Virus record (IMG/VR): IMGVR_UViG_3300023184_004167
Location: 74,366-138,365 of that record
Origin: a virus
Reading direction: 5' to 3' (one strand)
Length of the DNA stretch: 64,000 nt
Numbering within the stretch: position 1 is the stretch's first letter; each line of letters begins with the position of its first letter. The translations under genes and the position numbers were made by a program. The notes under the pieces are model-generated. The model was given only the letters and a program-made list of their open reading frames with translations. It made no database searches and was not told where the DNA came from. Below are positions 5,547-63,158 of the stretch, piece by piece.

Positions 5547-5601
5547 CATATTTTAGATAAAAAATAATAAGTTTTTTCAGGAAAAAGTAGATATTTAATG
5601 T

Positions 5602-6984: not shown

Positions 6985-7017
6985 AATGTATGTTTCCCCT
7001 TTATTGATAAATATCTT

Positions 7018-7467: not shown

Positions 7468-7470
7468 ATT

Positions 7471-40711: not shown

Positions 40712-41932
40712 TTAAAGGTCACTATAAACTAAAAATGTTAATTCACCCGTACAAAATAAGTTTTTGATATCTTTTGACATTCTCATTATAATACCGCCTG
40801 GCCCACCCTCAGAGAATGATATATCATACATTTTGCTTTGTGGGTCATTATTTAACAATGTTATTAATTCAGACATGTTATTAACAGTAGATGTGTTGTC
40901 AGCATAAATACTTGTTAAATAACTACCATTACAAAATAACGCCAAGCTCACATAATTAAAAGGAAAAGAATCATCAAGTGCCCCATATATATCAAGATAT
41001 TCTTTTTTAAATTGTATTTGAATAGGTGTAAAGTATAGTAAGTTATCTAAATACGCAGGGCCTGGACCTGCACACACATCAGTGACAGTTAAATATAAAG
41101 AATCATTAGGTAAATAATCATAACCAACACCAATTGTTAAAAGTGGTGAAAAAGGACAACCAAAAAAATCAAAAGGATATACCGATTGAGCATTTGTATA
41201 TATGTCATTTCTTGGAAATTCATTAAAGTATGTAAAAGGAATGTCAGAACGATACCCAATATAATAACCAACATCATCATGAATCCAATCAATATCAAAC
41301 CCTAGTGAATTTTCTAAAACACGGGAAACAATATCACCACCTGACACTAATTGAGAACCTTCCCCCCAATACGATGGTACATCACCAGTTGCAATAAACA
41401 CACATCCCGTTTCAGTGGGTGTTAAATCAGTAACAGTAATTGTTATATTATTTTCAGGAGTACTACCACTAAGTTCAGTTCCTAATATTGTTATTGTGTC
41501 TCCCACAACATAATCAACTCCACTAGTTACAACACTAATTGAAATATATGTCGTTCCGCACCAATAAACATCAAAAGATGCCCCACTACCCAAACCACTT
41601 GTTGTTCCTGTAACACCAGTAAATGCTGCGTAACCTACCCCTGGGGCGGTCCCAACATAATCAAAATTAAGAGTTCCCCCACTTATAATATCAGCAACAT
41701 TATAAAAATTATCATCGCTCACATAATTTGTAATAGTATATGTTTCACCAATTATTAATTGACCACCAAAGTCATCTATACTAGTTCCTGTAATTGAACC
41801 TGTTTGACTTAATAACGCTTTATAAGTACCTACACTATTTGTTGAACCCGTAACAATTATATTTCCATTAATTGTCAAATCACCCGTTATGGTTTGTCCT
41901 GTTAAATTATTTACAATGTATTTTGTTCCCAT
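40712..41932 (-). CDS. Virion / tail-fiber-associated protein
   Basis: ITGDLTINGNIIVTG fiber-type N-terminus; YKALLSQTG; GSGASFDV..SGVDYVVGDTITILG module; shares a module with the 1207-aa fiber. Confidence 0.65.
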   Translation of the reverse strand: MGTKYIVNNLTGQTITGDLTINGNIIVTGSTNSVGTYKALLSQTGSITGTSIDDFGGQLIIGETYTITNYVSDDNFYNVADIISGGTLNFDYVGTAPGVGYAAFTGVTGTTSGLGSGASFDVYWCGTTYISISVVTSGVDYVVGDTITILGTELSGSTPENNITITVTDLTPTETGCVFIATGDVPSYWGEGSQLVSGGDIVSRVLENSLGFDIDWIHDDVGYYIGYRSDIPFTYFNEFPRNDIYTNAQSVYPFDFFGCPFSPLLTIGVGYDYLPNDSLYLTVTDVCAGPGPAYLDNLLYFTPIQIQFKKEYLDIYGALDDSFPFNYVSLALFCNGSYLTSIYADNTSTVNNMSELITLLNNDPQSKMYDISFSEGGPGGIIMRMSKDIKNLFCTGELTFLVYSDL

Positions 41933-41954: not shown

Positions 41955-42590
41955 TTATTTTTGAAAGTATTTCTCAATTCTTTTACTTAATCTAACCCTT
42001 GGGTCATTTATATCTCTACCCACATCTTCATATTTTAATACAAACCCAAAACTTAAAAAAACTCTTCTTGAGTTAAATTCATTTGTCCAATGTTTGTATA
42101 AGGAAGCCTCAAATCCGTATAAATCAGTTTCTTCTATCTTAATTGTATCATCACCTAAAAATAAATTATAATCTTCCGACAAAACACTAATGTTACATTT
42201 ATAATTAACATATCCATCAAGAGATGCATCATAATGTGGGTTAATTTTTCCCCCTTTATTCATATCAACCGCCTGAAGAAAAATATTATCTTTTGGAAAA
42301 TTAAATTCTTCTGATATTCTATCAACTATAATATGAATAAAGTCCGGTAAAGGTTCTTTAGATACATTAGATATTGATTGGAATTTTGTAATATAATTTG
42401 TTAATGTTGTATTTGAAATATCAAAAATACAAGATTTACCTTTTAATACTTTGGATAATTCTGTAAGATGATAATTACTATCATCACCTATATGGTTAAC
42501 AGAATCCAACCAATTTACTATTTGGTTTGCCTCATCTTTTGAGATGAATTTTTTTTTTATCTTATAAGTTTCCAAGTCCGTATTTACCAA
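41955..42590 (-). CDS. 2-oxoglutarate/Fe(II)-dependent oxygenase (prolyl hydroxylase/AlkB-like fold)
   Basis: KKFISKDEANQI start, GGKINPHYD (HxD), distal His (LYKHW), 2OG-binding Arg (RRVFLSFGF). Confidence 0.82.
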   Translation of the reverse strand: MVNTDLETYKIKKKFISKDEANQIVNWLDSVNHIGDDSNYHLTELSKVLKGKSCIFDISNTTLTNYITKFQSISNVSKEPLPDFIHIIVDRISEEFNFPKDNIFLQAVDMNKGGKINPHYDASLDGYVNYKCNISVLSEDYNLFLGDDTIKIEETDLYGFEASLYKHWTNEFNSRRVFLSFGFVLKYEDVGRDINDPRVRLSKRIEKYFQK

Positions 42591-42828
42591 TTTTTTTAAG
42601 GTTATGTTTTGTCAAAAATTCACTTGGGTTCATTGCCTCAATTATAACAAACTCGGCAGAATCCATAAGTCTTTTGGCCTTTTCTTCGGTAACTGCCATA
42701 ACACAAAATTTATGTGTTGCGGGTAATTCTCCTGTTGATGACAAATCTATGTTCAAGATATTGTCATTTTTCATTTTTTCTCTTACTTGTGAAACTTTAG
42801 ATTCTTCACATAATATACAAATTCTCAT
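42562..42828 (-). CDS. Hypothetical protein
   Basis: 88 aa, overlaps the oxygenase start; LSSTGELPATHKFC. Confidence 0.6.
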   Translation of the reverse strand: MRICILCEESKVSQVREKMKNDNILNIDLSSTGELPATHKFCVMAVTEEKAKRLMDSAEFVIIEAMNPSEFLTKHNLKKIGKYGLGNL

Positions 42829-42854: not shown

Positions 42855-43931
42855 TTAGTCAATTGGTAATCCTAACTTATAATCTGATGTTATATCGCTC
42901 CACCCAATACCAAATTGGTATTTCATAACCTTATCAACAACAACATATGATTCATATTGTGTTGTACCAGTACTAACATCACTATTAATAAAAATACCAC
43001 TTAAAAAATACACATCATTTTCAGTATTTGCTTCGGTTGCTGCAGGTAAATTATCAATGATATAATCATATGCAGAATCTCTAATAGTTTCTGTTGCAAA
43101 TATCATTTGTTGGTTATAAATTTGTTCAGCATTACCTGTAAATCCTGTCAATATAGTTCTAACTGGCTCCGCCCATAAAATATCTGTTAATTTCCAAAAA
43201 GAATAATTACCATTATCAAATGGTGGATTACTTTGACTTGGAGCATCAGTTAATACATTTACAACTTGGTTAATCGCGCCCCAAATAGCACCACAAGTGT
43301 TATCAGTTAAACTATCTGATTTACCTCTTCTTAACATTCTACCTGAACGACCATCTTCAGTAACACCAATGTGTGGCATACTTGTCACAAAAAGTGTCCC
43401 TGTATTTGTAACATGACTTGCAAATGCGCCAAGACCAACACTACCAACAAATGGATAACCAGCCAAACCACCCGATTGAAATGGCCCAAGAAATGAGTTT
43501 ATACTATTTGGCCATTCACCGATGTTATTAGGTACTTTTGATGCATCAACATCATCTGAACAAATACCTTCAGCTAAAATAATATCTGTTGATGGTATAC
43601 CTTCATTTGTGATATATGATGTTGTATATGTTCCCCACACTTCAGATAGTACTGCATCCGAAAATGGATATGTTACATCATCAACAGTAATACCTCTTAC
43701 AGTTAGTGTGTATGCATCCTGCCCATCTAATGGAGCTGGTACTTCTATTTCATATGTTCTATCATATTCCGCAACCGATAAATCATAGATACCGTAAGGA
43801 TAATCACTAATGTTATTAAAAGGTATCATTTGAGTACCTAAAGAAGTTGAACCACCTGTTGTTGGATAAAAAGTTACATCGGCGGTGGCACCTGATAAAT
43901 TTGTACTTGTTATTCTAATTCCTTGTATCAT
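42855..43931 (-). CDS. LCIB/LCIC-family (theta-class) carbonic anhydrase domain fused to an N-terminal beta-rich module
   Basis: ICSDD, GPFQSGGLAGYPFVGSVGLGAFASHV, PHIGVTEDGRSGRMLRRG and TCGA match the LCIB pattern, including the Cys/His/Cys zinc ligands. Confidence 0.8.
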   Translation of the reverse strand: MIQGIRITSTNLSGATADVTFYPTTGGSTSLGTQMIPFNNISDYPYGIYDLSVAEYDRTYEIEVPAPLDGQDAYTLTVRGITVDDVTYPFSDAVLSEVWGTYTTSYITNEGIPSTDIILAEGICSDDVDASKVPNNIGEWPNSINSFLGPFQSGGLAGYPFVGSVGLGAFASHVTNTGTLFVTSMPHIGVTEDGRSGRMLRRGKSDSLTDNTCGAIWGAINQVVNVLTDAPSQSNPPFDNGNYSFWKLTDILWAEPVRTILTGFTGNAEQIYNQQMIFATETIRDSAYDYIIDNLPAATEANTENDVYFLSGIFINSDVSTGTTQYESYVVVDKVMKYQFGIGWSDITSDYKLGLPID

Positions 43932-43962: not shown

Positions 43963-46900
43963 TTATAATACTAATCCAAAATTTAAATCATTTTCAGGTA
44001 TGTCTAAAGTTGTAATATCATTACAAGGTGCTTCAGTTAATGTTTCTATTGTTAACACATCTAATTCATCATAATACGACAATCTATTATCAAGATTTCT
44101 ATTTTTAAAGATGTTAACCGTTGTTGGTTCGTATAACACACCTGTGGTTAAACAAGTATCGCCAACTATGGTATCAACAATATTCCATTGGAAATAATTA
44201 TCAACAATATTAAGGTTAAAATTATTACTAATTCTATTATTATAAAAATGTTCTCCTATTGTATTGGCAATAAAATTATCACCTATAATATTTTTTTGAC
44301 TTGAGACAGCACCATATCCAAAACTATTACCTATGGTGTTTCCAGAAAATATATCACCAATATAATTACTTTCAAATTCATTACCAATAGTGTTATACTG
44401 AAATCCTATTCCAACAGTATTTGCGCCAAATGAATTACCGATAATATTAAAACCAAATGATTCTCCAATAGTATTAAGACTGAAATCGGCACCAACCGAA
44501 TTTTCTACAAACAAATTACTTATTTTATTACTTATAAAATTACCTAAGAAGTCGTTTCCAGTTGTTATGTTGCCAAACGTATTAAATATTGTCTGGCCAG
44601 ATATTTGATTAGCTGTGAATCCAAGACCTACATTGTTAAATGCAAATGGTTCTAAAATAAGATTACCTTTAAAACCATAAGATATGTTATTACCCTCAAA
44701 ATAGTTTAGTATTTGGTTTTCATAACATAAATCACCTATTATGTTTTCTATGGTTTCACCTGAAAATTCATTACTATAAAAATTATTACCTATTGTATTA
44801 CCTGTGAAAAGGATAATAATGGTGTTTTCATAAGTTTCGTAACCAAACTTATTTCCTTGTACGTTCCCAACTATTGTATTATTGTAAAACGTAAATCCGA
44901 TAGTATTTCCATCAAATGAACCATCTATAGTGTTATCGTGAAAATCTCCTTTCCAATCATTTCCTGTTACAGTACCGCCTGAAAAAATATTACCATATGT
45001 ATTTAAACCTATTTTATTTCCCTCCGTAAACCCTATAATAATATTACCATAAAATCCTGACTCAAATGTATTTTTATCTAAATCATCACCTATTGTATTA
45101 TTATAAAAATCACTCACCCAAGTATTTCCTAAAACCTCACCTAAAAAATCATTACCATGTGTTTCTGACCCAATATTATTGCCGTAAGTAAAACCTGAAA
45201 ATTGATTTGCATAAACAAAAGAGTCAACATTATTTAATGAAAATTGTTGACGAATATAATTTCCTTTGAATTGATTAATAATTGTGTTGTTTTCAAAATA
45301 ACTACCATTATATTGTTGTGTATAAATTGAATTCCATTGTGTTCCTTCAGGTGAAACATTTTGATTCCACCCCCCTTCCAAAACCTGATTATAAATTCCA
45401 CCATTGTTTCCTCTTACCATTTCAAGACGGCTAAGGATAATAAAATCGGTTTTGTCTTCGTAATTTAATTTTGTAAAATAAACGGTTGGTTCATATGTTG
45501 GATACACTTTTGTTCTTTCATATGAAAAACCTCCACCATTACTACCTTGTGTCCATTGATTAAATTTAACGGCGTGATACTCATTATAAACAGTTAATTC
45601 AGTTACTGTTATTCCACACCAACTACTTGGTGTAGTTCCTGTTGCGATAAAAATACATCCAACTTCATTGATTGTACCATCTATTACATCAGCGACATTA
45701 CTAAAATCACTACCGCCAAACGCTACGTTTGTTATTTCATATGTCTCACCAACCACCAAATAACCAAAACTTTGTGTTGTGCCTGAATCACGATAGAAAT
45801 TCATTATAAGTTCTTTACCTAAAATAATATTTCCTAAATTTTGATTTCCATCGTCACCGTATAATGAATTAAAAAATGTGTTATAAGTTCTTCCTGTTAA
45901 ATTTTCAATAGTTGTATTATCCCAATTAAAATATTGAGTATCACCTAAAGTATTATTTTCAAATCGGTTACCAATTTGGTTATTGTTAAATGTATAAGAA
46001 ATACTATTACTATAAAAATACTCACCGATTTGATTGTCGTGAAAATAATCTCCAATTAAATCATTATTATTAAATCCATTACCAATGTGATTACCATAAA
46101 AATCATAACCTATATTATAGTTACCATTAAAGCCGTTTCCTATCACATTTTTATAAAAATTACCATTAGCGATATTATCGTTAAATTGATTACCAATTTG
46201 ATTATTTTGGAAATTTTGTCTAATGATATTATATTCAAAATTATTTCCTATTCTATTTCTATAAAAATTAAAATCACCCAAATTACCATTGTCACCGATA
46301 GTATTGTCATTAAAATATAAACCAATTTGATTCTCATAAAAGTCAGAATAAACAGTATTATTATTAAAATTATTACCAATTTGGTTACCATAAAAGTTTC
46401 TATAAATTTCATTATTCTCAAAGTACTGTTCAATTGTATTTTCATACATATAACCTTTAATAATGTTATTATTAAAATATTCTCCAATACTATTACTATA
46501 AAAACCATTATTATAAATCACATTATTATAAAATCTACCCGCAATTGTATTTCTTGAAAACCAATATGTTCCTGTATTGTTATAAGACCTATCTCCTATT
46601 GTGTTTGAATAAGTTCTATTACCATAAAACACATTATTTGCTAATAAAAATCCTGAAGTACTTCCGATTTCATCAAGATAAAATTTAGAATAATCTCCAA
46701 CATAGTTATGTATAGCACTTCCATCTAAGTTAAAAGTCAGATAATCATTGTAGTCCCCTTCATTTTTTTGTCCAATATAAACTTCTTTATATTCGTTAAT
46801 ATCACCTGTTGGTGTTGTTTTGTAAAGAGGAATAAGTCCGCCAGTAAAGTTTATTTGACTTCCAAATGATGAGTCAACTATTACATATATTAAAGTATTT

Positions 46901-47586
46901 GTGCTAGCGCTATAAACCTTAACACCCACCATATAACCTTGATACTCAAAAAATAATATGTCCCCAATTTGAGCGTCAGCAAAAAATGATGTTCCGTTAC
47001 CCAACATTATACCAGTTCCACTATCATAACTGTCTAAATATCCTACTAATTGAACACCTTTATCATATGACCTAAATCTATTAAAAAATATGGTTCTGTG
47101 GTCATAATCGGTTCTATTGTTATATTCATCAATTCTTTCAGAAATTCTACCATATGCAACACCTTGAGTTATTTCAGTTGCACTAAAAGTCCAATCATAT
47201 TGGATTCTATCATTTGGATATGCTTGTTGATATGCGGTTGAACTAATTGTACTAAGACTTGTTGCAAAAACAATAATAGGTTCAACATTAGATTGATTAT
47301 ATTGTATTGCATCACTTCCTTTTGGATTACCATTTACGTAATATTCAGGAACATCATAACAAGTTTGAAAATCTGTTATGATATAATAAGCACCCACATT
47401 TAATGTACCACCATTAATATTATTTACAAGTTCAGAATATGTTGTTTCAATAAGTCCGCCAACACTTCCTGTAATGGCAGAAAAGTCAATATGATATGTA
47501 GCTCCGTTTAATTCTACGGGTATTAAAGTATCGGGTGTTGGTATTTCCAGATAAGTTAATTCTCCTATGGTTTTTCCTGTTAACAT
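43963..47586 (-). CDS. Tail fiber/spike-like protein with extensive beta-helix repeats
   Basis: GKTIGELT N-terminus; TYSELV..L.VGAYYIITDFQT; many 9-residue N-x-I-G-x-x-F-x-x repeats. Confidence 0.75.
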   Translation of the reverse strand: MLTGKTIGELTYLEIPTPDTLIPVELNGATYHIDFSAITGSVGGLIETTYSELVNNINGGTLNVGAYYIITDFQTCYDVPEYYVNGNPKGSDAIQYNQSNVEPIIVFATSLSTISSTAYQQAYPNDRIQYDWTFSATEITQGVAYGRISERIDEYNNRTDYDHRTIFFNRFRSYDKGVQLVGYLDSYDSGTGIMLGNGTSFFADAQIGDILFFEYQGYMVGVKVYSASTNTLIYVIVDSSFGSQINFTGGLIPLYKTTPTGDINEYKEVYIGQKNEGDYNDYLTFNLDGSAIHNYVGDYSKFYLDEIGSTSGFLLANNVFYGNRTYSNTIGDRSYNNTGTYWFSRNTIAGRFYNNVIYNNGFYSNSIGEYFNNNIIKGYMYENTIEQYFENNEIYRNFYGNQIGNNFNNNTVYSDFYENQIGLYFNDNTIGDNGNLGDFNFYRNRIGNNFEYNIIRQNFQNNQIGNQFNDNIANGNFYKNVIGNGFNGNYNIGYDFYGNHIGNGFNNNDLIGDYFHDNQIGEYFYSNSISYTFNNNQIGNRFENNTLGDTQYFNWDNTTIENLTGRTYNTFFNSLYGDDGNQNLGNIILGKELIMNFYRDSGTTQSFGYLVVGETYEITNVAFGGSDFSNVADVIDGTINEVGCIFIATGTTPSSWCGITVTELTVYNEYHAVKFNQWTQGSNGGGFSYERTKVYPTYEPTVYFTKLNYEDKTDFIILSRLEMVRGNNGGIYNQVLEGGWNQNVSPEGTQWNSIYTQQYNGSYFENNTIINQFKGNYIRQQFSLNNVDSFVYANQFSGFTYGNNIGSETHGNDFLGEVLGNTWVSDFYNNTIGDDLDKNTFESGFYGNIIIGFTEGNKIGLNTYGNIFSGGTVTGNDWKGDFHDNTIDGSFDGNTIGFTFYNNTIVGNVQGNKFGYETYENTIIILFTGNTIGNNFYSNEFSGETIENIIGDLCYENQILNYFEGNNISYGFKGNLILEPFAFNNVGLGFTANQISGQTIFNTFGNITTGNDFLGNFISNKISNLFVENSVGADFSLNTIGESFGFNIIGNSFGANTVGIGFQYNTIGNEFESNYIGDIFSGNTIGNSFGYGAVSSQKNIIGDNFIANTIGEHFYNNRISNNFNLNIVDNYFQWNIVDTIVGDTCLTTGVLYEPTTVNIFKNRNLDNRLSYYDELDVLTIETLTEAPCNDITTLDIPENDLNFGLVL

Positions 47587-47630
47587 AATTTTTCTATTTT
47601 ATTTATAAATATCTTTTATTGTTTTATTAT

Positions 47631-49463
47631 TTAAAAATTGTTTTCTACCGCCAAGCATATTTCACCACTTTCGGATATTAATCTCGCCATATTTGTAAAT
47701 GAAATATAGGCATGTCCATTAACTCCCCAAGTTTGACCCCAACTATTTTTAATTCTAAATTGTTGTTTAACTATATCAACACCATTTATTACATAAGCAT
47801 GACCCCCAGCCAAATAACCACCAATACTTATAACACCATTTACAGGGTAGAACATATTGTAATACCAATTTGTGCCAACAACCACTGGACCAATATTTAA
47901 TACTGTGATAATTAATGTATTAACATCAAACGCCCAATAATATGAGGTTATTTTACTGACACTTTTTAAGTATTTTGCCGCTCCTCTAACTGATGTTCCG
48001 TCATAGTTTTCTCCCGGCCATTCATCCACTTTTTGTGCTTCACGATAAATTAAATCAGGGGGTACAACAGGTTGAATACCACTATGAACTACAGGGCCAT
48101 CTGAAATCCAATGAGACCAAGCATATCCAACACACATCGGAGTATTTAATTGATTTCCCCACCATACATTATCACCCCAATATTTTGATGTTAATGGTTT
48201 GGTAGGTGTAATACTCGGTGTTGGTGTCTTTGTGTGGGTCGGAGTTGTTGGTAATTTTGTTGGTGTATGACTTGGAGTTATGGGTAATTTTGTTTTTGTG
48301 GGTGTTGGACTAACAGAAGGTTTACTTTTAATTCTAACTAACCAATCATAAAAATTGGATATTAAGTAATTATTATCCCTATCATCTTTAACGTGATTTC
48401 TACCTAACTGAAATGGTGAACCCATCATCAATGGAGTTGGGTTAATAAACATTAAATATATTCCATCATCAACCCTAATATAATCACCATTATTTGTTAG
48501 TATTGCGTCAGTTATAACTTGCTCTGTCTCAGTTGGTGTTGGAGTAGGTGTTGGAGTTTTTGTTTGAGTTGGAGTTGGATTTGGTGTAGGCGGGGGAAAT
48601 GGGTCAATAAATTTTAAATATATTCCGTCACCAACCTGAATATAATCACCATCATTTGTTAGTATCGCGTCTATAATATTTTCTTCGGTTTGAGTAGGTG
48701 TTGGTGTAGGTGTTGGGGTAGTAGTTGGCGTTTCAGTATTAGTTGGAGTGGGTGTTGGTGTTACAAAGAATGATTGCTCTGTTATATCAAAAATATTTGA
48801 AAGATAACTTGGGCTAATTGATAAATTAGAGAAAGTACCAATATCTTTTAAATTGTTAAAGTCGTCAGAAAATAAATAAACATTTGTTTCCCCATATTTG
48901 GTTCCTGACATTATTGTTACACCTGTTGAAACAACTATTGGAGGCCCAGAATAAACTTGATATGTGTTTGTAAAACTTAATGTAATGTCTGTCGGAACAC
49001 TTTTGTTAGAGTCTAAAGTATATAAAATATTGATAGAACCAGAACTAATATATGCAGATAATCTTAATAGTATCCTTGTATTGTCAGGACAACAATTATC
49101 CGTTGAAACAAAAGTTTCTTGTATATTAATGAATAATTGCTCTTTTAAGGGTAAAATGAGATTTCCCTCATTATTTTGAATAAAGAACTCGGCTTTATAT
49201 TTTCCGGGTTTGTCAGTATTTCTCGCAGAGAATTTGTAATAAATGTAGTATTCAGGACTAGAACCATCAGGTAGTATTAAAGGAACAATACTACACGGAG
49301 CAAACGCAATCTTTGGAATCCCCGTATTTACATCCACCATTGAAAAGTATATGGTAGATGTTTCCAAACTTTCCATTAGAGATTGAAAGTCACTCCTTCC
49401 ATCACGAATAACCAACATCTTTAATACGGGCAGATTCGCACCACTTTTGATAAAAAATTCCAT
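47631..49463 (-). CDS. BppU-like N-terminal domain + Thr/Pro linkers + papain-like (C1) cysteine peptidase
   Basis: N-terminal FFIKSGANLPVL..YYKFSARNTDKPGKYKAEF; C-terminal QLNTPMCVGYAW (Gln/Cys), GGHAY (His), IKNSWGQTWG (Asn). Confidence 0.82.
   Translation of the reverse strand: MEFFIKSGANLPVLKMLVIRDGRSDFQSLMESLETSTIYFSMVDVNTGIPKIAFAPCSIVPLILPDGSSPEYYIYYKFSARNTDKPGKYKAEFFIQNNEGNLILPLKEQLFINIQETFVSTDNCCPDNTRILLRLSAYISSGSINILYTLDSNKSVPTDITLSFTNTYQVYSGPPIVVSTGVTIMSGTKYGETNVYLFSDDFNNLKDIGTFSNLSISPSYLSNIFDITEQSFFVTPTPTPTNTETPTTTPTPTPTPTQTEENIIDAILTNDGDYIQVGDGIYLKFIDPFPPPTPNPTPTQTKTPTPTPTPTETEQVITDAILTNNGDYIRVDDGIYLMFINPTPLMMGSPFQLGRNHVKDDRDNNYLISNFYDWLVRIKSKPSVSPTPTKTKLPITPSHTPTKLPTTPTHTKTPTPSITPTKPLTSKYWGDNVWWGNQLNTPMCVGYAWSHWISDGPVVHSGIQPVVPPDLIYREAQKVDEWPGENYDGTSVRGAAKYLKSVSKITSYYWAFDVNTLIITVLNIGPVVVGTNWYYNMFYPVNGVISIGGYLAGGHAYVINGVDIVKQQFRIKNSWGQTWGVNGHAYISFTNMARLISESGEICLAVENNF
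48195..48760 (-). repeat. Thr/Pro tracts and duplicated ~27-aa module
   Basis: TPTPTPT tracts flank NIIDAILTNDGDYIQVGDGIYLKFIDP (~48601-48680) and VITDAILTNNGDYIRVDDGIYLMFINP (~48440-48518). Confidence 0.85.
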
Positions 49464-49479: not shown

Positions 49480-51153
49480 TTATGATTCTTTTCTTAAGTT
49501 ACCAGCATAGTGGTCAAATCTATCATGCTCAACAGGTGTTAATAATAATAAACCACCATTTAATTCACCTTTTTTAGTTAATTGGTACATATGAGACATC
49601 CAAGTATTCTCAAAAGGTCTAGCCCAAGTGGTGTTTAAAAACATTTTTTTATTACCAACACGACTAATTAATTGAGTCCAATTACAATAATAAATCTCAC
49701 CATCAACATATGGCAACCCATTATGAGTCTTAATGTTATTAAATTTGGTTTTTGGAGAATTGGGGTCTAATCCTTGTACAGGTAATTTATTTTTTTCTGG
49801 CCAAAACTCTTCTCTAACAGATTGGGGTACATTATACCAACTCCATTGAGTACCATTATCACCATAAAATTCACTATAATTAAATTTTATAAAATCAAAA
49901 TTTTCTTTTTTAATAACTTGTAAAGTATTTGAATATAAATTTGGTGAGAATCTATTAAACCCATTTCTACAGGTTTCTAATGGTTTATTTTGAAAGAACA
50001 TATCATCTTCAGAGAAGATATAATAATCTAAATTAGTATCCTCAAAATGCTCCGCTATCCATTGTCTTCCACCGCATATCCCTAAATTGTCTTTTTTAAT
50101 GTGTTCAAACCCGTGTTCTTCACATAATTTTGAATACGCATCAAATGTTGATTCATCAGTTGAATTATCTAATAAAAACTTTGTGGTTTTTAAAATAAAA
50201 TCTTTATCATATTCTAACATTGATTGTATTAAAGTTTGAAATTGTTTTGGACTATTAAATGTTAAAACATATAAACCAACCTTATTAGTATCCAATGTAT
50301 TTTCAATTGAAATCTTACCTTCTGATTTAACTTTTAATGTGTCATTTTTTAAATCTTCAAAAAATTTACCCATTAACCCATTCCCGTCTATTTCAAAATA
50401 ATTTATTAAATCAGAATGTTTATAACACATAATACTAAAAAGTGATTCTTCAGTACCCATATATCCTTCATCTAATGTTGATTTTAACATTCCATAATAA
50501 ATTGAATTCATACTTGAAATAGATTCTTTTGGCCCACCAAAAAATCCTCCTCTTGCCACCTTATTAACAGTTTCTCCAGCAATTGAATTTAATTTGTTAT
50601 ATTCAAACCCGTGTATTTCATTTTCAGCACCATATGGAAAGCAAACAAAAGAGAATTTAGAAATATATTTAGATAATTTATCTAATACTTTATCATGTGT
50701 AAAATATCCTTGATGTACAGTATTTGTTAATCCTGCATCAATCCAAAACATATATTCAGAATTAAATCTATCAAATATTTTTGCGTCGTGTAACAAAAAC
50801 ATTTTTGACATAACCAAAGGATTATACATTTCAAGTTTTGCCTGAGTAGAATCTTTGAGCCAACCTGATAAGTTAAACCATTCAGGATTCGTTCTTATTT
50901 TTTGAATTTTATCATAGTATTCATTATTTTGAAACCAATCAGATTTTCTTAAAATGAATTGAGTATTTTCTGAATTTCTATGTTCTTTAACAAAAGATTC
51001 AAGCTCCTCATCCCCAAATATTATCATATTTTCATCAACTTGTAAAAGTTGTTTGAATTTATCCAAATATTGGTCAAAAGAACGACTCCATCCTTCTGTT
51101 AAATTTCCTCTACCAAGGTTCCATAAACCTGTTACTAATGTTATTTTACTCAT
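49480..51153 (-). CDS. HtrL/YibB (WlaTC)-family putative glycosyltransferase fused to GT2-like domain
   Basis: ITLVTGLWNLGR, RSFDQY, YNPLVMSK, WIDAG, GGFFGG, TEE; C-terminal YVLTFNSP..FLLDNS..NLGICGGR..FSEDD. Confidence 0.75.
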   Translation of the reverse strand: MSKITLVTGLWNLGRGNLTEGWSRSFDQYLDKFKQLLQVDENMIIFGDEELESFVKEHRNSENTQFILRKSDWFQNNEYYDKIQKIRTNPEWFNLSGWLKDSTQAKLEMYNPLVMSKMFLLHDAKIFDRFNSEYMFWIDAGLTNTVHQGYFTHDKVLDKLSKYISKFSFVCFPYGAENEIHGFEYNKLNSIAGETVNKVARGGFFGGPKESISSMNSIYYGMLKSTLDEGYMGTEESLFSIMCYKHSDLINYFEIDGNGLMGKFFEDLKNDTLKVKSEGKISIENTLDTNKVGLYVLTFNSPKQFQTLIQSMLEYDKDFILKTTKFLLDNSTDESTFDAYSKLCEEHGFEHIKKDNLGICGGRQWIAEHFEDTNLDYYIFSEDDMFFQNKPLETCRNGFNRFSPNLYSNTLQVIKKENFDFIKFNYSEFYGDNGTQWSWYNVPQSVREEFWPEKNKLPVQGLDPNSPKTKFNNIKTHNGLPYVDGEIYYCNWTQLISRVGNKKMFLNTTWARPFENTWMSHMYQLTKKGELNGGLLLLTPVEHDRFDHYAGNLRKES

Positions 51154-52033
51154 AAATTCCGTTTAATTCTTCTAAAATTTTATAAAAACTTTTATTAATT
51201 TTAAGGTGTTCTGACATTTCTATTCCAGAAATTCTTTCATTTTCGTGCCACCAAGTATCAAATTTATATATTTTAAACATGTCTTCGTGATTTCTAAACA
51301 TTAATGTCATAATATCTTCTTCGTGATATAATCTACCATCTTCTTCAGTAACTTGATGCACATATTTTTTAAATAATTCTACTATATTATTCCATAATTC
51401 TTTTTTTCCTCCAAACAAACCACCAATAATATGATAACTTCTATCGTGATTAAAAAAATGTTTTGGATTTACTGTTCCTGACCAATAATTTCTATCATTT
51501 TCTTTACCTATTATCGTGAATTTATCTTCAGTGTTTACTACTAAATTATTTAAAAAATTATTATTAAATAATGAACTTTCATAATACCCACGATTATGGG
51601 GACCACCAGGGGTTAAGTATTTATTTGGAATTAAACCACAATGTGATAACCCAGCATCAATCCAATAATAATAATCATAAGACATATCTTCAGATAAAAA
51701 CCAAATAAATTTCATATATTGTATTTCAATACATCTATCTCCTCTTCTAGCCCCTTCAATATCTTTATATTTTTTAAATAATTCTAAAAAATAATGTTCG
51801 GATAAGTTATATTTTACTAATTTTAATTTATCTTTTTCTATGTTATTTTCAATATGAAAAAAATTATATAAATCATCAAATTCTTCCTCAGATGTATAAC
51901 AAATAAAATCTGATTCAGTCATTTTTAATAATGATAATAAACTCCATTTATAATGACCTCCTCTGCTTGGTCTTCCACCAAAATCAGTTCCGTGTAAATT
52001 ACTATATATTGATGTAATAAATTTAACTTTCAT
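51146..52033 (-). CDS. HtrL/YibB-family putative glycosyltransferase
   Basis: YYYWIDAGLSH, IIGGLFGG, HEEDIM; paralogous to the N-terminal domain of the neighbouring gene. Confidence 0.72.
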   Translation of the reverse strand: MKVKFITSIYSNLHGTDFGGRPSRGGHYKWSLLSLLKMTESDFICYTSEEEFDDLYNFFHIENNIEKDKLKLVKYNLSEHYFLELFKKYKDIEGARRGDRCIEIQYMKFIWFLSEDMSYDYYYWIDAGLSHCGLIPNKYLTPGGPHNRGYYESSLFNNNFLNNLVVNTEDKFTIIGKENDRNYWSGTVNPKHFFNHDRSYHIIGGLFGGKKELWNNIVELFKKYVHQVTEEDGRLYHEEDIMTLMFRNHEDMFKIYKFDTWWHENERISGIEMSEHLKINKSFYKILEELNGIYE

Positions 52034-52045
52034 AGTTATTTTTTT

Positions 52046-52765
52046 TTATTCTGAAAATCTTTTAGAATATTTTTCATTACCCCAATCAGAAAAATGAGGT
52101 AAATGAAATGGTGCAAAATTTCTTGTTGGTTTAAAAGTATGATGAATATCAGACTCCCAAATTCTACTTAACATATCTCCATCTTCCGCACCCCATCCCT
52201 CATATTTTTCATCAAATCCGTTTAATTTTAATAATAATTCTGTATCACATAAATAAACACCACCTAACCCACCAATATATCCATTAAGTGGACCATTATT
52301 TCTATTACCTGAATAAGCATACGACCAATCACTCATCTCAATTTTAAACGAGTTATCAATAATATAATTAGAAACATTATCTTCTAATTTAGCCAAATCA
52401 AAAGTACAAACATCACCTTTGTTTAAATTTTTAATTAATTCTAATAATTTGTCATAATCTTGTTCATAAAAAAATGCATCACAATCTATAACCATAAAAA
52501 AATCATAATCTTTCTTTTCTTTTAAAATAATATTTGTTTTTTCTGCTTTTTTATAAACCCCTAACGGATATGGAATATGAATTGAATCTAAAATAATTTG
52601 ATTTGGGGAAAAATCATATAAAGTAGTATTAACATTAACACCATTTTCACTTAGGAATAAAGAAAGTTTTTTTAATTCTCCCCAAGAAAAGTTAACATTT
52701 CTAATTCTTGTTGAGTCAGGGTTACCGTCATCCCAAAATTTCATATTTAATGATATACTATTCAT
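52046..52765 (-). CDS. GT-A glycosyltransferase with GT7/galactosyltransferase-like C-terminus
   Basis: DxD (IDCD), LNGFDEKYEGWGAEDGDM, HLPH. Confidence 0.82.
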   Translation of the reverse strand: MNSISLNMKFWDDGNPDSTRIRNVNFSWGELKKLSLFLSENGVNVNTTLYDFSPNQIILDSIHIPYPLGVYKKAEKTNIILKEKKDYDFFMVIDCDAFFYEQDYDKLLELIKNLNKGDVCTFDLAKLEDNVSNYIIDNSFKIEMSDWSYAYSGNRNNGPLNGYIGGLGGVYLCDTELLLKLNGFDEKYEGWGAEDGDMLSRIWESDIHHTFKPTRNFAPFHLPHFSDWGNEKYSKRFSE

Positions 52766-53693
52766 TAATTAATATTTTTATTTTTTCCCAAACATTAAAT
52801 GTTGGGTTTTTAAAAAAATCTTGTTTTAAGTTTTTAATGTTATTTATATAAAAATTATAATAATCTAAATGATTGTAAATAACATTATCAATTGTTTTAA
52901 TCATTTCATCAATAGTCATCCCATTTAAATTAATAAAACAATCTGATGAAATATAATCCGTAATATTTGAACACCCCAAGTATATCGGTATTGATTCTGT
53001 TAATATTGCGTCCCAAAATTTTTCGCTTATATAATTTTTTTGTATTGAATTTTCACAAGCAACAGAAAATAGATACTCATCTAACCCAACATGCTTATTC
53101 CAAACATCCCCCTTAATATTTTTACCATTATTAATCCAATGAACACCAAAAACATCTATTTTTTCATTTTCAGATAATTTAATTCCTAAATCAGTTCTTT
53201 TAGTATAATTTATTTCTGAAGTATTTGGATTAGATAAATGACTATAATGTGTTGAACCATCCCTTCTTACAATGATTGAGATTGTTTTATTTTTTATATA
53301 TTCTTTGTCTTTTATTTTTAAAGACCAATCCCATTCTTCCCTATTATCAAGTTCTCCGCTTCCTCCATAAAACATTGGTAATAATGTCTCAATATATTCT
53401 TCTCTATCTGGATAGTCTTTTTTATCTGAAATTAAAATTTTTGAACAATGATTATGTATATTATCTTTTGGTTGATTTGGTGACCACAAAGGTTCTTGGG
53501 AAATGTAAAAAGTTTTTTCTTTTGGTGTCTCTATTTTATCCCAATCAGTTCTTCCAAAAACAATTGTATAATCAGGATTTTCATTTACCAAAGAAAAATG
53601 TTTTAAATCTTCATCCGAAACAAATTGTCTTATCATTCTTGCATTTAATGAGGGAGCATCTGTCCACCAACATTCAAGCTTAATTTTAACCAT
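52758..53693 (-). CDS. GT10-family (alpha-1,3/4-fucosyltransferase-like) glycosyltransferase
   Basis: ISQEP and YLFSVACENSIQKNYISEKFWDAILTESIPIYLG fucosyltransferase motif. Confidence 0.85.
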   Translation of the reverse strand: MVKIKLECWWTDAPSLNARMIRQFVSDEDLKHFSLVNENPDYTIVFGRTDWDKIETPKEKTFYISQEPLWSPNQPKDNIHNHCSKILISDKKDYPDREEYIETLLPMFYGGSGELDNREEWDWSLKIKDKEYIKNKTISIIVRRDGSTHYSHLSNPNTSEINYTKRTDLGIKLSENEKIDVFGVHWINNGKNIKGDVWNKHVGLDEYLFSVACENSIQKNYISEKFWDAILTESIPIYLGCSNITDYISSDCFINLNGMTIDEMIKTIDNVIYNHLDYYNFYINNIKNLKQDFFKNPTFNVWEKIKILINE

Positions 53694-53696
53694 AAT

Positions 53697-54293
53697 TTAA
53701 TATATTTCTAACGAAAGTGCGTTATACCTAACATATCTATCACTGTAAAATTTAAAAGTATGTTGATTTCTAAAACCATTTATTTGTTCTGCGTAATGAC
53801 CATCAGCATTTCTCCATTCAATATTGGGGATTAAAGTTTTTTTAATTAATCTATATCTAATGATAAATGAACCAATATCACAACCACCTAATCTTAATCT
53901 ATCTTCATAACCCCATAATCTATCTTTTTCAGTTAATCCTTGCTTTTGAGAAAATAAAACTAAATCAACATCAGTCTCTTTTTCTTCATTATACGTTTTA
54001 ATTAAATCCCAAGTAACCACATTATCATCATCTAAAAAATAACACCAATCATTATCTTCACATTTTATGTCAGTAATGAAATAATTTCTTTGTTCGTGAC
54101 CCCAAAGATGAGAAGTATCAATTTTATAAAATTTAACTCTTTCATCGGATTTTAAAAAATCTAAAGATTCTTCACCAATTTTATTTGAACCCTCAATTAA
54201 ATGCCAATTAAAATCATTCACTTGATTTTTAATTGACGAATAAATAATCTTAATATTATTATATCTATAAAGTGGAGTAATAAAATGTATCAT
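53697..54293 (-). CDS. GT-A fold glycosyltransferase (GT2-like)
   Basis: FITPLYR, GHEQRN, YFLDDDN, DIGSF, ADG. Confidence 0.75.
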   Translation of the reverse strand: MIHFITPLYRYNNIKIIYSSIKNQVNDFNWHLIEGSNKIGEESLDFLKSDERVKFYKIDTSHLWGHEQRNYFITDIKCEDNDWCYFLDDDNVVTWDLIKTYNEEKETDVDLVLFSQKQGLTEKDRLWGYEDRLRLGGCDIGSFIIRYRLIKKTLIPNIEWRNADGHYAEQINGFRNQHTFKFYSDRYVRYNALSLEIY

Positions 54294-55045
54294 AGATTAT
54301 TTTTGTTTTCTTTAAAAAATTTCTCATATGGGTATAAATTGATATCAGGTAATACTTTATCACAAGGCATTCCAAACATCCCCGAAATATTACTTTTGGG
54401 ATTACTACAATTATATTTTGACCCAAAAGTAAAATCTCTATTAAAGAATGAGTATTTACCCACTCCTGGCTTTACGTGTTCGTGTCTAATGTCCGACACA
54501 ATATTATAAACCCCTTGGACGTATAATTGATAAACATCTTTATTTTTACTTTCTAACATTCTATATGTAATATCACCATCTTCTTCCCCAAACCCCAATA
54601 ATCTCTCATCAAAGTATCCTAATTCATCCACAAGAAATTTATTTACAACAAAAAATGAAAATGTTCCATTTATTTTTGACATACCATAATATTCTTCGGA
54701 ATCAATGTGGTTGGAAACAACTTCAAACATATTTTCAGTAACTAAATTAATGTCATCATTTAATAATAAAACATTATCTTTAGTTGAATGAATTAATAAT
54801 GTGTTCCACATCTTAGATAATCCTCTCATCTCTACAAAAAATATTGGAAATATATTAGGGTAAGATAAACATAAGGATAGGATTTTTTTTCTATATTCTT
54901 CATTGAAGTTAGAATCTTTTTCTCCATTAATACATAAAAAAATATTATTCGGAACATTTAATTCTCTTATTTTGTTAATTAGGGATTCAATAAAATCATA
55001 TCTTAACGAAAATGTGGTTATTCCTATATCAAAATTATTTTTCAT
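54290..55045 (-). CDS. GT2-family glycosyltransferase
   Basis: IGITTF, RGLSKMWN, LLLNDD, GYFDERLLGFGEEDGD; start moved to MKNNFD (55045) to avoid a long overlap with the methyltransferase. Confidence 0.8.
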   Translation of the reverse strand: MKNNFDIGITTFSLRYDFIESLINKIRELNVPNNIFLCINGEKDSNFNEEYRKKILSLCLSYPNIFPIFFVEMRGLSKMWNTLLIHSTKDNVLLLNDDINLVTENMFEVVSNHIDSEEYYGMSKINGTFSFFVVNKFLVDELGYFDERLLGFGEEDGDITYRMLESKNKDVYQLYVQGVYNIVSDIRHEHVKPGVGKYSFFNRDFTFGSKYNCSNPKSNISGMFGMPCDKVLPDINLYPYEKFFKENKNNL

Positions 55046-55589
55046 ATATCCAACAAGCCCCCATTTGTTTAATATTATCTTTATCTTTAAAAAATTCGTT
55101 AACTGCGGGATATACACCGCAGTCATAATGATAGTCGTGACCAGCAATAACCCCACCATTTTTTACTTTAGGATACCAAGAGTTTATATCTTTTTTAACG
55201 CTTTCATAATCGTGTCCTGCATCAATGAAAACAAAATCTAAACTATTGTCTTCATATAATAATGCTCCGTCCCAAGAAATTGATTTAATAATGTTAATAC
55301 TACTCTTAACGGGTTCAATGTTTTTTAAAAAAATATCAAATAAATTTTCAAATTGATTTTTATTAATTTCAATTGAAGTTTTAATATACTCCCAAGTATC
55401 AACACAATCAAATTTTATATTTTTACCTGAATTAATTATTTCAACCGCCATAAAACAAGCGCTCATTCCTTTCCACGCACCAACTTCAACAAAATGAGAA
55501 TCATTGTCAAATCTATTAACCATCATTGAATATAAATCTTCATACCCAAACCAATTTTCACTTTCTATTTTTTTATAAAAATGTTCCAT
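55035..55589 (-). CDS. Class I SAM-dependent methyltransferase (Methyltransf_24-like)
   Basis: VEVGAWKGMS, CVDTW, LDFVFIDAGHDYESV, GGVIAGHDY. Confidence 0.88.
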   Translation of the reverse strand: MEHFYKKIESENWFGYEDLYSMMVNRFDNDSHFVEVGAWKGMSACFMAVEIINSGKNIKFDCVDTWEYIKTSIEINKNQFENLFDIFLKNIEPVKSSINIIKSISWDGALLYEDNSLDFVFIDAGHDYESVKKDINSWYPKVKNGGVIAGHDYHYDCGVYPAVNEFFKDKDNIKQMGACWIYEK

Positions 55590-55593
55590 ATAT

Positions 55594-56130
55594 TTATTTT
55601 TTGTAAATTAATAATTTATTATCACAATATAATTTATAAGATAAATTGTTTTTTTCAAACCATTCAATAGTTAAAGAACAATCATACGCATGCAAGTCCT
55701 CAATAATATAATAACCACCTTCTTTTAAGTAAGGGGAAAGAGATTCAAAACTTATTATATGGTGTGAATGTTTATGTAGTCCGTCATCAATTATAATGTC
55801 ATATTCACCGCCATATGTTTCAATACATCTATTTAAATCTTCTTTGGAACTTTGGTCACCAATAAAAATACTAACACCATTTGTTTCAAATTTTTTAGAG
55901 TCTTGATTGATGTCAAAACCAATTAATTTTAAATCAGAAAAAAAAGATTTCCATAATTGTATTGATGCGCCCGGAAATCTTGGGTCATAAACACCAATTT
56001 CTAAAAGTTTAATTGGATTATTTTTTATATCTTGAAAGTATTTTTCATATATTTCAGTATATGAATGGGCTTCAAAATTTTGATTTCCTTTGTCAGTACC
56101 TATTTTATTTGCTATTTCGGTTAATGTCAT
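55594..56130 (-). CDS. SAM-dependent sugar O-methyltransferase-like protein (MycE/TylE-like)
   Basis: GTDKG..HSY..Y, LLEIGV, GFDIN, GDQS, DIIIDDGLH, GGYYIIEDL. Confidence 0.8.
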   Translation of the reverse strand: MTLTEIANKIGTDKGNQNFEAHSYTEIYEKYFQDIKNNPIKLLEIGVYDPRFPGASIQLWKSFFSDLKLIGFDINQDSKKFETNGVSIFIGDQSSKEDLNRCIETYGGEYDIIIDDGLHKHSHHIISFESLSPYLKEGGYYIIEDLHAYDCSLTIEWFEKNNLSYKLYCDNKLLIYKK

Positions 56131-56152
56131 TTTAAAACTTATTTTATTACTT

Positions 56153-56881: not shown

Positions 56882-56883
56882 TT

Positions 56884-59798: not shown

Positions 59799-60167
59799 TT
59801 ATATTGGTGTTTCTGTAGGTGTTGGTGTTTCCGAAGGGGTTGGAGAAGGTATCCACGGAAATGGTAAATTAACTATTGGGGGATTAATAATATCTTTTAT
59901 TTTTTTGGTAATGATTGATTGTAGATTATTTGTATCATTACGTTCATATAACCAAGTAATAACCATTTCTTGAGTAATGTCACCATATAAGATATAATCA
60001 GTATCATTAACTGAATCAAATTCGGTATATCCTTCTATTTTTGAGGTAATACCATTATCATCTATTCCAATGTAATCCCAATAAACTCTTGTTACAAAAT
60101 TCTCATAACCATTAAATAATGGAATTATATCCATTAATTTTATATTCCAATTGTATGTGTTTGCCAT
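59799..60167 (-). CDS. Conserved tail-fiber-associated phage protein with C-terminal Thr/Pro tail
   Basis: TYNWNI..VTRVYW..ILYGDITQEMVITWL..INPP..LPFPW followed by IPSPTPSETPTPTETPI. Confidence 0.6.
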   Translation of the reverse strand: MANTYNWNIKLMDIIPLFNGYENFVTRVYWDYIGIDDNGITSKIEGYTEFDSVNDTDYILYGDITQEMVITWLYERNDTNNLQSIITKKIKDIINPPIVNLPFPWIPSPTPSETPTPTETPI

Positions 60168-60188
60168 AATTTTATTATAAATATTTTA

Positions 60189-61184: not shown

Positions 61185-61196
61185 AATTTAATTTTT

Positions 61197-62174: not shown

Positions 62175-62186
62175 ATAATATTTTTT

Positions 62187-63155: not shown

Positions 63156-63158
63156 AAA

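Follow-up and report, generated by a model that had tools for sequence, protein, structure and literature searches.

We analysed a 64,000-nucleotide stretch of viral DNA (hereafter the window; positions 74,366 to 138,365 of IMG/VR record IMGVR_UViG_3300023184_004167) and found that one minus-strand open reading frame (ORF), at 42855..43931, encodes a protein that is identified by its sequence as carrying an LCIB/theta-type carbonic anhydrase (CA) domain, with a predicted beta-CA fold, in a tailed phage. Judging from its homologues, it falls within an extensive branch of the LCIB family that consists of viral proteins only, and we consider it probable that it is an active zinc (Zn) CA of this branch fused to an N-terminal docking module, hereafter referred to as the handle. 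The LCIB family comprises the theta-CAs, one group within the beta-type CAs, and its members are known as parts of the CO2-concentrating mechanisms (CCMs) of algae and diatoms. The ORF limits, strand, ATG start and length of 358 amino acids (aa) given in a preliminary description of this DNA were borne out, and the gene was divided into the following parts.

42855..43931, minus strand: gene for the handle and LCIB-type CA (from the ORF list; 358 aa, ATG start, codons checked)
42855-42857, minus strand: stop codon of this gene
43734..43931, minus strand: handle, a predicted six-stranded Ig/FN3-like beta-sandwich ending in VPAP (residues 1-66; from the alignment boundary and AlphaFold2, AF2)
43674..43733, minus strand: connector and start of the LCIB lead-in, Q71..YT..VR79 (residues 67-86; lead-in also present in handle-less viral relatives)
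42858..43673, minus strand: LCIB/theta-type CA domain (residues 87-358; from Pfam, PDB alignments and the family alignment)

Family identity of the CA domain

A profile search for the LCIB/C CA domain, proposed as a check in the preliminary description, returned Pfam PF18599 (LCIB_C_CA) at 102.8 bits, where the curated cut-off is 25, with an E-value of 2.2e-29. The match spans protein residues 103-332 and profile positions 11-216 of 223 (window 42936-43625); it scored 103.2 bits in a scan of the whole record, and none of 14 control genomes matched. Since LCIB_C_CA was the sole Pfam family at E <= 0.01, with no match to the canonical beta-CA family Pro_CA at this threshold, the protein was assigned to the LCIB subgroup and not to the canonical beta-CAs. 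The PHROGs contained no family for the whole 358-aa protein. Using phmmer against PDB chains, we detected seven distinct sequences at E <= 1, every one of the LCIB family: 6kfs_A (the best, 3.6e-13), PtLCIB4 of Phaeodactylum tricornutum (5b5y, 2e-11), 9vzj (7.3e-11), PtLCIB4 mutant chains, and CrLCIB (5k5w, 0.11).

The LCIB identity of the C-terminal part was thus correctly recognised beforehand, while its length of ~250 aa was an underestimate: counted with its lead-in, the domain covers ~290 aa, roughly residues 70-358. The lead-in ('Q..YT..VR..YP.A', residues 71-93) is common to relatives without the handle, and a clade-specific insert, GITVDDVT, lies within residues 67-86. The ESM Atlas model of the protein superposed on a bacterial LCIB cluster with a template modelling (TM) score of 0.73 over 244 residues. 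Feature-based Atlas neighbours outside the LCIB clusters were mainly CDCA and CsoSCA, with lead-level scores only.

Conservation of the predicted active site

All four motifs quoted in the preliminary description were found in the translation, namely C-x-D-[DE] as C124-S-D-D127, GGLAG[FY]PFxG..G..A..SH as residues 154-173 (GGLAGYPFVGSVGLGAFASH), PH[IV]G...G...RRG as residues 186-203 (PHIGVTEDGRSGRMLRRG) and CG[AS] as C213-G-A. We further aligned the protein with PtLCIB4, whose numbering was set from the alignment of the S47R mutant chain (5b60), in which the mutated residue comes right after the aligned Cys and subtracting 13 from the chain index yields the residue number; the H88A entry (5b5z) is, by its title, consistent with the same numbering. 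PtLCIB4 residues C46, S47, D48, H88, H102 and C126 align to phage C124, S125, D126, H173, H187 and C213, respectively. Cys46, His102 and Cys126, which we take to be the Zn ligands of PtLCIB4 and which were reportedly identified by Jin et al. in 2016, thereby correspond to Cys124, His187 and Cys213, and the earlier claim that all three Zn-ligand positions are present holds on this alignment. The codons concerned are as follows.

43554..43562, minus strand: Cys124-Ser125-Asp126 (predicted first Zn ligand, PtLCIB4 Ser47 position, conserved Asp)
43413..43415, minus strand: His173 (equivalent of PtLCIB4 His88, by alignment and chain-index count)
43371..43373, minus strand: His187 (predicted second Zn ligand, PtLCIB4 His102; codon checked)
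43293..43295, minus strand: Cys213 (predicted third Zn ligand, PtLCIB4 Cys126; codon checked)

Across an alignment of 34 LCIB members with 20-82% identity, C124, D126, H173, H187, R201 and C213 were invariant (34/34). We then took a residue census of copies aligned to the family hidden Markov model (HMM), comprising 23 unique handle-type, 88 other viral and 65 bacterial copies. The six residues C124, S125, D126, H173, H187 and C213 were present in every handle-type copy (23/23), and C124, D126, H173, H187 and C213 in 87-88 of the 88 other viral copies, the single miss being an N-terminally cut ORF; the Zn-ligand positions were likewise kept in 65/65 bacterial copies, as was the equivalent of His173 (65/65). 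The residue after the first Cys was Ser in 23/23 handle-type copies and Ser or Ala in 87/88 other viral copies, and Arg was found there in no viral copy of the census. We take this position to be functionally meaningful in PtLCIB4, for which a structure of the S47R mutant has been deposited. PtLCIB3 and PtLCIB4 are called constitutively active in the accessible part of a review (PMC9614477). Together, these residues suggest, with good though not full confidence on our part, that the phage protein has real CA-type activity.

Conservation and selection among handle-type relatives

In a search of metagenome proteins, 279 of 2380 candidates matched at E <= 0.001. The best 120 of these 279 were all 75-99% identical to the phage protein, 340-363 aa long and in possession of PF18599; given this shared length and domain, the full 358-aa architecture is common in metagenomes. 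A single-protein query of the IMG/VR viral contigs found no relatives, and an alignment query was needed; in the alignment-based search, 35 of 56 pattern matches encoded a relative, giving 31 distinct loci. PolB, the DNA polymerase, lies downstream of the LCIB gene in 25 of the 31. Best-segment identity was higher for LCIB (75-82%) than for PolB (42-80%) in all 25 loci with both genes, for example 80% versus 47% and 42% in L009 and L012, respectively. The LCIB gene is a core gene of an uncultured lineage of myoviruses with genomes of ~300 kb.

We next estimated the ratio of nonsynonymous to synonymous substitution rates (dN/dS; Nei-Gojobori, 253 pairs of 23 unique genes, with row L020 beginning at gene residue 3). 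Median dN/dS was 0.23 for the handle (residues 1-66) and 0.20 for the LCIB domain (residues 87-358), and both domains are under purifying selection.

A virus-only branch among LCIB homologues

The closest handle-less relatives share 34-48% identity over residues ~86-355; all are metagenomic proteins, some of them already labelled with the Pfam name by the Joint Genome Institute (JGI). A second IMG/VR search, built on an alignment of 17 handle-less relatives, yielded 195 pattern matches, of which 166 encode a relative, and 80 loci were kept (L037-L116). The LCIB ORF was present in 80/80, and many of these viral relatives lack the handle or begin with no more than a short N-terminus. Eight loci (L037-L040, L070, L081, L083, L088) carry tandem LCIB pairs around locus positions 4800-7800, in which a copy with a 60-120-aa N-terminal extension is followed by a copy without one; in the tree, the extended copies of L037, L038 and L040 group apart from the short ones. 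Such pairs are reminiscent of the LCIB/LCIC pairing in algae. A 776-aa fusion (L041:5665-7995 and L042:5665-7995) has its LCIB domain at residues 112-385 behind a different N-terminus, and its C-terminal extension of ~390 aa has no PHROG match. The handle-LCIB fusion itself recurs in divergent form in 11 loci (L089, L090, L094, L095, L099, L102-L105, L114, L115). When 21 handle-less LCIB N-termini and handle payloads were queried against the PHROGs, the only matches were phrog_15511 on Pro/Thr-rich stretches and one weak match of unknown function; an impression that the N-termini of L046, L055 and P0133 are fibre-like found no PHROG support and was dropped.

We also compared the viral proteins with cellular homologues. 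The viral-clade motif GTFIN.DDG gave 21 pattern matches and no confirmed relative in 185,579 species genomes. The canonical short LCIB form was found in 70 cellular loci (L117-L186), which by record titles comprise 46 Bacteroidota, 12 Balneolales/Rhodothermia, 5 Ignavibacteria, 3 Planctomycetota, 2 Methylococcales and 2 Woesearchaeota, a sample that is biased because it was found with a single search pattern. A quick IQ-TREE search was run on 94 rows (153 sequences de-replicated at 80%; midpoint-rooted, long branches, no eukaryotic rows). All 34 viral rows fell into one clade, with 100 in the Shimodaira-Hasegawa-like approximate likelihood ratio test (SH-aLRT). Support of 95% was obtained for a wider group that unites this clade with two Chitinophaga rows, a single Methylobacter row and three library representatives; the wider group is itself part of a radiation made up mostly of Bacteroidota. 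Cellular homologues thus occur in the likely host group (63/70 loci in Bacteroidota, Balneolales/Rhodothermia or Ignavibacteria), and the viral copies are nested among them, as in a gene of cellular origin. The window protein belongs to a 99%-supported subclade of seven rows, of which six bear the handle and the L041/L042 type is the handle-less one; the fusion has been kept even though the LCIB domains of this subclade have diverged to roughly 40-47% identity. In the Atlas, LCIB_C_CA clusters that are 69-93% viral are listed. Taken as a whole, the homologue comparisons place the window protein in a large virus-only branch of the LCIB family.

PHROG annotation of 147 ORFs around the LCIB genes in 19 viral loci identified the major head protein (L045, L046, L064, L078), the portal and a sheath stabiliser (L055), the 'virion structural protein' phrog_29507 (L045, L060, L077, L078, L097), a baseplate-fibre connector or protease (L087, L093) and the glycosyltransferase phrog_24687 (L095, L105). 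In L045, L046, L055, L064, L077, L078, L087 and L097, LCIB adjoins major head, portal, baseplate or virion-structural genes, a point in favour of docking.

The N-terminal handle

The boundary of the handle was drawn from an alignment of 40 handle-bearing sequences, which ends sharply at 'VP.P'. The preliminary description had proposed a separate module of ~70 residues at this end of the protein; the module is indeed separate, and it ends at residue 66 ('VPAP'). Folded alone with AF2 from the 40-sequence alignment, the handle reached a mean predicted local distance difference test (pLDDT) score of 77.1, with about 85-90 over residues 1-60, and the model has strands at residues 3-7, 16-23, 29-35, 38-42, 47-53 and 58-64. 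The model pLDDT drops to 52 and then 34 across connector residues 67-86.

With jackhmmer run on every ORF in the record and in loci L006-L036, the handle was detected on nine other ORFs, 69-916 aa in length, and four more non-LCIB ORFs that open with a handle adjoin the handle-LCIB genes of L089, L103, L104 and L105. Exhaustive search of a protein library returned 808 proteins at E <= 0.001, 204 at <= 1e-10 and 22 at <= 1e-30. Among the listed representatives (P0121-P0269), 28 of 149 bear the handle; P0121, P0135 and P0139 are of LCIB type or LCIB fragments, and the other 25 include a family of 680-785 aa and proteins with a Pro/Thr-rich stalk right after the handle. Such a Pro/Thr-rich linker follows the handle in P0221, P0224 and P0256 and in ORFs of L011, L015 and L033. 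In every copy found, the handle is N-terminal. Only the two LCIB-type proteins matched Pfam in a scan of 24 handle-bearing proteins (20 from the library, 4 locus ORFs), and 11 other handle-bearing proteins had no PHROG with a structural label. A homologue search with residues 1-80 (0 of 156 longer and 1 of 4 shorter candidates) is uninformative on the rarity of the handle, because the word index misses divergent copies. The best reading of the handle is a portable docking module or anchor.

The preliminary description had further likened this part of the protein to a virion module. A distinct, beta-rich N-terminal module is upheld by the alignment and the model, but no known virion module could be matched. 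Residues 1-85 had no Pfam family outside LCIB and no PHROG at E <= 0.01, and in the Atlas they gave no usable feature match and structural rows with TM <= 0.46. Foldseek of the handle model against PDB and BFVD returned 0 matches at E <= 0.001, the best BFVD row (E 0.04, TMq 0.68) being a 740-aa protein, itself uncharacterised, from an uncultured phage. With VIA, the best Z was 6.3, to generic Ig/FN3/MG domains and within the noise band of the tool. Seven of the 50 best VIA rows were C-terminal sorting domains of the type IX secretion system (T9SS; 8gl8, 8gl6, 5m11, 5ag9, 8qb1, 8glj and 8glk; Z 5.2-6.3), which is curious in a phage whose host probably bears a T9SS; because these scores lie in the noise band and the handle is N-terminal, we make no claim from this likeness.

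Genome and host

The source record has 138,365 bases and an estimated CheckV completeness of 46%, from which we put the genome at ~300 kb; the lineage is represented by contigs of 190-320 kb. The record belongs to a T4-like myovirus with ~30% G+C and encodes gp25, baseplate J, a baseplate hub, the tail tube, a 1076-aa sheath, gp32, a UvsX-like recombinase, DnaB, a class II ribonucleotide reductase and PolB. The window itself carries the gp25, baseplate J, sheath, tube, gp32, UvsX-like and PolB genes, in agreement with the earlier identification of a tailed phage, and neither tRNAs nor Rfam matches were found in it. No match was obtained when the LCIB protein was searched with tblastn against 50,697 phage records. 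The nearest PolB proteins are those of Salinibacter and Nostoc phages (22-30% identity, with 22% to Salinibacter phages), and the nearest cultured sheath is that of Microcystis phage Mel-JY01 (30%); no close cultured relative exists.

The host is probably a member of the Bacteroidota, as host-type genes elsewhere in the record suggest; the Salinibacter, Nostoc and Microcystis affinities just given count against this assignment. A T9SS C-terminal sorting domain (PF18962, 9.2e-11) ends a 704-aa ORF outside the window (L002:1565-3679, that is, G000 C1:1565-3679), and the same record encodes an SprB-repeat protein (1.5e-22) and DUF285 proteins. The protein with the T9SS domain seems to be cargo for the type IX secretion system of the host and is the best host clue. 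Annotation of the 138-kb record turned up no gene for photosynthesis or for a CCM. Given the Bacteroidota-type genes and the lack of any CCM gene in this annotation, the analogy with algal CCMs drawn in the preliminary description is probably not transferable. If the host were a cyanobacterium, the physiological reading would be a different one altogether, since a CA in the cytosol would make a CCM collapse.

Neighbouring genes and expression signals

The LCIB gene lies in a variable, appendage-like region with the following neighbours.

43963..47586, minus strand: o1207, a repeat-rich ORF of 1207 aa, possibly an appendage protein (31-bp gap to the LCIB start)
41955..42828, minus strand: the downstream pair o88 (42562-42828) and o211 (41955-42590), conserved and with no Pfam match
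47605..47612, minus strand: ATATTTAT, a candidate promoter core, the nearest upstream of the o1207-LCIB pair and 26 nt before the o1207 ATG

The LCIB gene had been described as directly following a tail-fiber gene. The ORF in that place, o1207, has no Pfam, PHROG or PDB sequence match and can only be called large, repeat-rich and variable. An o1207-like ORF with 35-70% identity stands 5' of LCIB in 20 of the 31 related loci, a C1 peptidase directly upstream in four, and seven loci have little or no sequence upstream of LCIB. On the 3' side, o88 and o211 follow LCIB in most related loci, either adjoining it or with ORFs between. Neither o88 nor o211 has a Pfam match, and o211 has no PDB sequence match; a guess that o211 is a 2OG-Fe oxygenase, made from an HxD...H-like pattern, was discarded as unsupported after the empty PDB search.

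Several further features of the region were observed. The ORF o406 (40712-41932, minus strand) shares with o1207 a domain of ~48 aa (46% identity, E 1e-6; pattern 'GETY.ITN...F.NVAD.I.G...GC.FIATG..PS.W'), which occurs twice in o406, and o406 weakly matches PHROG 'structural protein' families (phrog_697, 5.1e-06). The gene at 47631-49463 (minus strand) encodes a protein of 610 aa whose C-terminal part is a papain-like C1 peptidase (phrog_16701, 2.6e-49; Pfam 22 bits versus a cut-off of 20.7), preceded by two repeated units with long Pro/Thr-rich linkers between; its residues 142-219 are 45% identical to the stretch after the handle of P0248. A run of genes at 49480-58131 (minus strand; HtrL_YibB, Glyco_transf_7C, GT10, GT25, a GlcNAc-transferase and Methyltransf_24) adjoins the variable appendage-like genes and may serve to glycosylate Pro/Thr-rich stalks. 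The GlcNAc-type glycosyltransferase is 46% identical to an enzyme of the Xanthomonas jumbo phage Xoo-sp13 and recurs beside LCIB in L095 and L105. Two giant ORFs of 2326 and 1678 aa (12057-19037 and 19350-24386, both minus strand) lie between gp32 and the baseplate hub and have no Pfam or PHROG match at E <= 1e-5. G+C content rises from ~30% to 43-46% at 60001-64000, a segment that covers three adjacent paralogous ORFs of 322-331 aa (60189-63155; Gly_rich_2 / phrog_863 'tail fiber assembly').

Of 125 ORFs, 22 have the 8-mer ATATTTAT within the 60 nt upstream, where 0.85 would be expected. In its wider form, [AC]TATTTAT, often followed by an A-rich 'AATAAA', the motif stands 12-52 nt upstream of many ORFs (e.g., 31978+42 and 27709+42) and is a candidate for a general phage promoter. 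The upstream region of the LCIB gene holds no copy of ATATTTAT of its own, no minus-strand terminator-like site was found in 40-50 kb, and a scan for sigma-70-type promoters stayed at the level of shuffled sequence (63 found versus 68.8 expected). Given the lack of its own motif, the position 31 bp after the o1207 stop and the lack of a terminator-like site, the LCIB gene is likely co-transcribed with o1207 from the motif at 47605-47612.

Proposed function and alternative explanations

In the mechanism that we favour, Zn would be held by Cys124, His187 and Cys213, as in PtLCIB4 and the beta-CAs, and Zn-bound water or hydroxide, oriented by Asp126, would interconvert CO2 and bicarbonate. The gene would be transcribed along with the large variable ORF upstream, and the handle would anchor the enzyme on something that the phage builds, for which the virion heads the list of candidates. 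The benefit would most likely lie in a faster supply of bicarbonate from CO2, or in control of the balance between them, in or at a probable Bacteroidota host during replication of a genome of ~300 kb. Since the handle opens many other proteins, several of them on Pro/Thr-rich stalks, docking of the enzyme to such a structure is most likely. That it is attached to the virion, or packaged in it, has in our estimate somewhat less than an even chance, and the full proposal, in which the handle docks or packs a working CA as a part of the virion of these giant phages, is a shade more tentative than that. Zn binding, activity, oligomeric state, location, host and benefit are what we infer throughout.

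Several observations weigh against this mechanism. The full-length AF2 model, made from 22 close homologues, had a mean pLDDT of only 43.4, so that support for the fold comes from the sequence matches and the Atlas model. For the handle, the family and fold searches above were empty or within noise, and the LCIB gene is the only handle-bearing ORF in the 138-kb record, as found with jackhmmer and in agreement with a broader profile. The promoter-like motif precedes replication and structural genes alike and therefore carries no timing information. Intact residues are no guarantee of activity, since CrLCIB, of the same family, had no measurable CA activity in vitro according to the accessible part of a review (PMC9614477). 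The viral clade also has a long stem (1.7 changes per column) and a loop insert of 7-9 residues right after Cys-x-Asp ('..KVP..NIG.WP.S'), on account of which the substrate could differ.

These last three points, together with position 202, where R/K/Q is conserved in the viral clade and variable in bacterial copies, would fit a protein with the same fold and metal site and another reaction, such as a Zn hydrolase for carbonyl sulfide (COS), CS2 or a cell-surface substrate. COS and CS2 hydrolases do use the beta-CA fold. We regard this explanation as improbable, given that every residue conserved across the family is kept, including those of the CA-active PtLCIB4, and that the Atlas neighbours beyond LCIB belong mainly to other CA families, albeit at lead-level scores. 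Still less probable is a Zn fold that has been put to a new use in the particle, as a protein of purely structural or binding function without catalysis, akin to the structural oligomer that the preliminary description offered as an alternative. The gene does adjoin large variable ORFs and, in other lineages, head and baseplate genes, and LCIB-family proteins are reported as multimeric complexes in the accessible part of PMC9614477; a structural protein would nevertheless have no reason to keep five active-site residues, which are found in 23/23 handle-type and 87-88/88 other viral copies at a dN/dS of ~0.2, and the alternative is disfavoured by this retention of catalytic residues.

More serious, if still unlikely in our view, is a free cytoplasmic auxiliary metabolic enzyme that would work solely within the infected cell and would, by speeding the conversion of CO2, provide bicarbonate for carboxylations (carbamoyl phosphate, the purine ring, malonyl-CoA, anaplerosis) during replication of the ~300-kb genome, with the handle serving, for example, as an oligomerisation or partner-binding domain and not as a virion anchor. 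Carboxylation pathways need bicarbonate, and Escherichia coli depends on a CA in air. Among the viral relatives, many lack the handle or start with a short N-terminus only, the handle matches no virion family, and PhoH or MazG-like genes, which are typical auxiliary genes, lie near LCIB in L046, L077, L078 and L097. The tandem LCIB pairs of L038 and L040 are surrounded by genes for dCMP deaminase, RNA ligase, endonuclease V and deoxyribonucleotidase, a nucleotide-metabolism context that fits a free cytoplasmic enzyme and speaks against docking. Set against such an enzyme are the occurrence of the handle on long beta-rich and Pro/Thr-stalk proteins without an enzyme domain, which resemble surface appendages, the retention of the handle-LCIB fusion under purifying selection across deep divergence, and the position of the gene in a variable appendage-like region, where it is probably co-transcribed with a 1207-aa repeat protein. 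Gene context is compatible with a particle-associated protein and with a metabolic gene inside a structural module alike.

If the virion proposal is true, an enzyme on the virion would influence the pH and CO2/bicarbonate chemistry of the host surface while the phage adsorbs; alternatively, it would be delivered with the DNA and reset the inorganic-carbon balance of the cell from the first seconds of infection. An LCIB clade with interchangeable N-terminal modules (at least 166 + 35 IMG/VR stretches) would then mean that aquatic phages commonly target inorganic-carbon chemistry, which has gone unrecognised until now.

Comparison with known systems and implications

The characterised proteins closest at hand are PtLCIB4 and PtLCIB3 of P. 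tricornutum and further LCIB-family proteins of solved structure (PDB 5b5y, 6kfs, 9vzj), which belong to the same Pfam family and have an alignable catalytic core (E 3.6e-13 to 7.3e-11). The phage protein shares with PtLCIB4 the Cys-Ser-Asp, the two His and the Cys-Gly in register, with Ser and not Arg after the first Cys; it differs in being viral, in its 66-aa Ig-like handle and in a loop after Cys-Ser-Asp that is 7 residues longer, and it lacks the chloroplast or pyrenoid context of algal LCIB. The LCIB_C_CA proteins of Bacteroidota and related bacteria (for example Chitinophaga, Dyadobacter, Pedobacter and Chryseobacterium) have the same domain and the same invariant Zn-ligand positions (65/65), are the nearest cellular relatives in the tree and come from the same phylum as the suggested host, but they are shorter (about 225-265 aa) and have neither the handle nor the loop insert. 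To our knowledge, these bacterial homologues are unstudied.

Modular appendages such as tail fibres, tailspikes, T4 Hoc and T5 pb10 combine a conserved N-terminal anchor with a variable C-terminal payload. The handle resembles them in that one small N-terminal module precedes many bodies, the genes lie side by side in a variable region and flexible Pro/Thr stalks follow the module; it differs in having no sequence or fold match, and the payload here is a small-molecule enzyme instead of a receptor-binding or glycan-degrading domain. We know of no close precedent for a virion-borne small-molecule enzyme, should this be confirmed.

Virus-encoded CO2/bicarbonate enzymes have been noted in viral metagenomes. 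Alpha, beta and gamma CAs of sponge-associated viral operational taxonomic units (vOTUs) are discussed as auxiliary carbon/pH genes (10.64898/2026.01.21.700432), and a CA was found in one giant-virus vOTU (PMC13037468); the accessible parts of these sources describe alpha, beta and gamma types only, with no LCIB/theta type and no shared N-terminal module. Our literature search found no paper on LCIB-type CAs in viruses, although supplementary tables might hold annotations. The statement in the preliminary description that such a protein had not been described in phages therefore stands as far as papers go, but JGI labels and mostly viral Atlas LCIB clusters already exist.

Together, these findings suggest that the LCIB family has a large, monophyletic, virus-only branch, and that one lineage of jumbo phages has it as a core gene, which surpasses the DNA polymerase in conservation and is permanently joined to a portable module. 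For biochemical work, the viral proteins form a small panel of LCIB enzymes with natural diversity, and the binding partner of the 66-residue anchor could reveal how phages hang accessory proteins on themselves. They also provide a testable case that phages of probably heterotrophic Bacteroidota may need control of CO2 and bicarbonate during infection.

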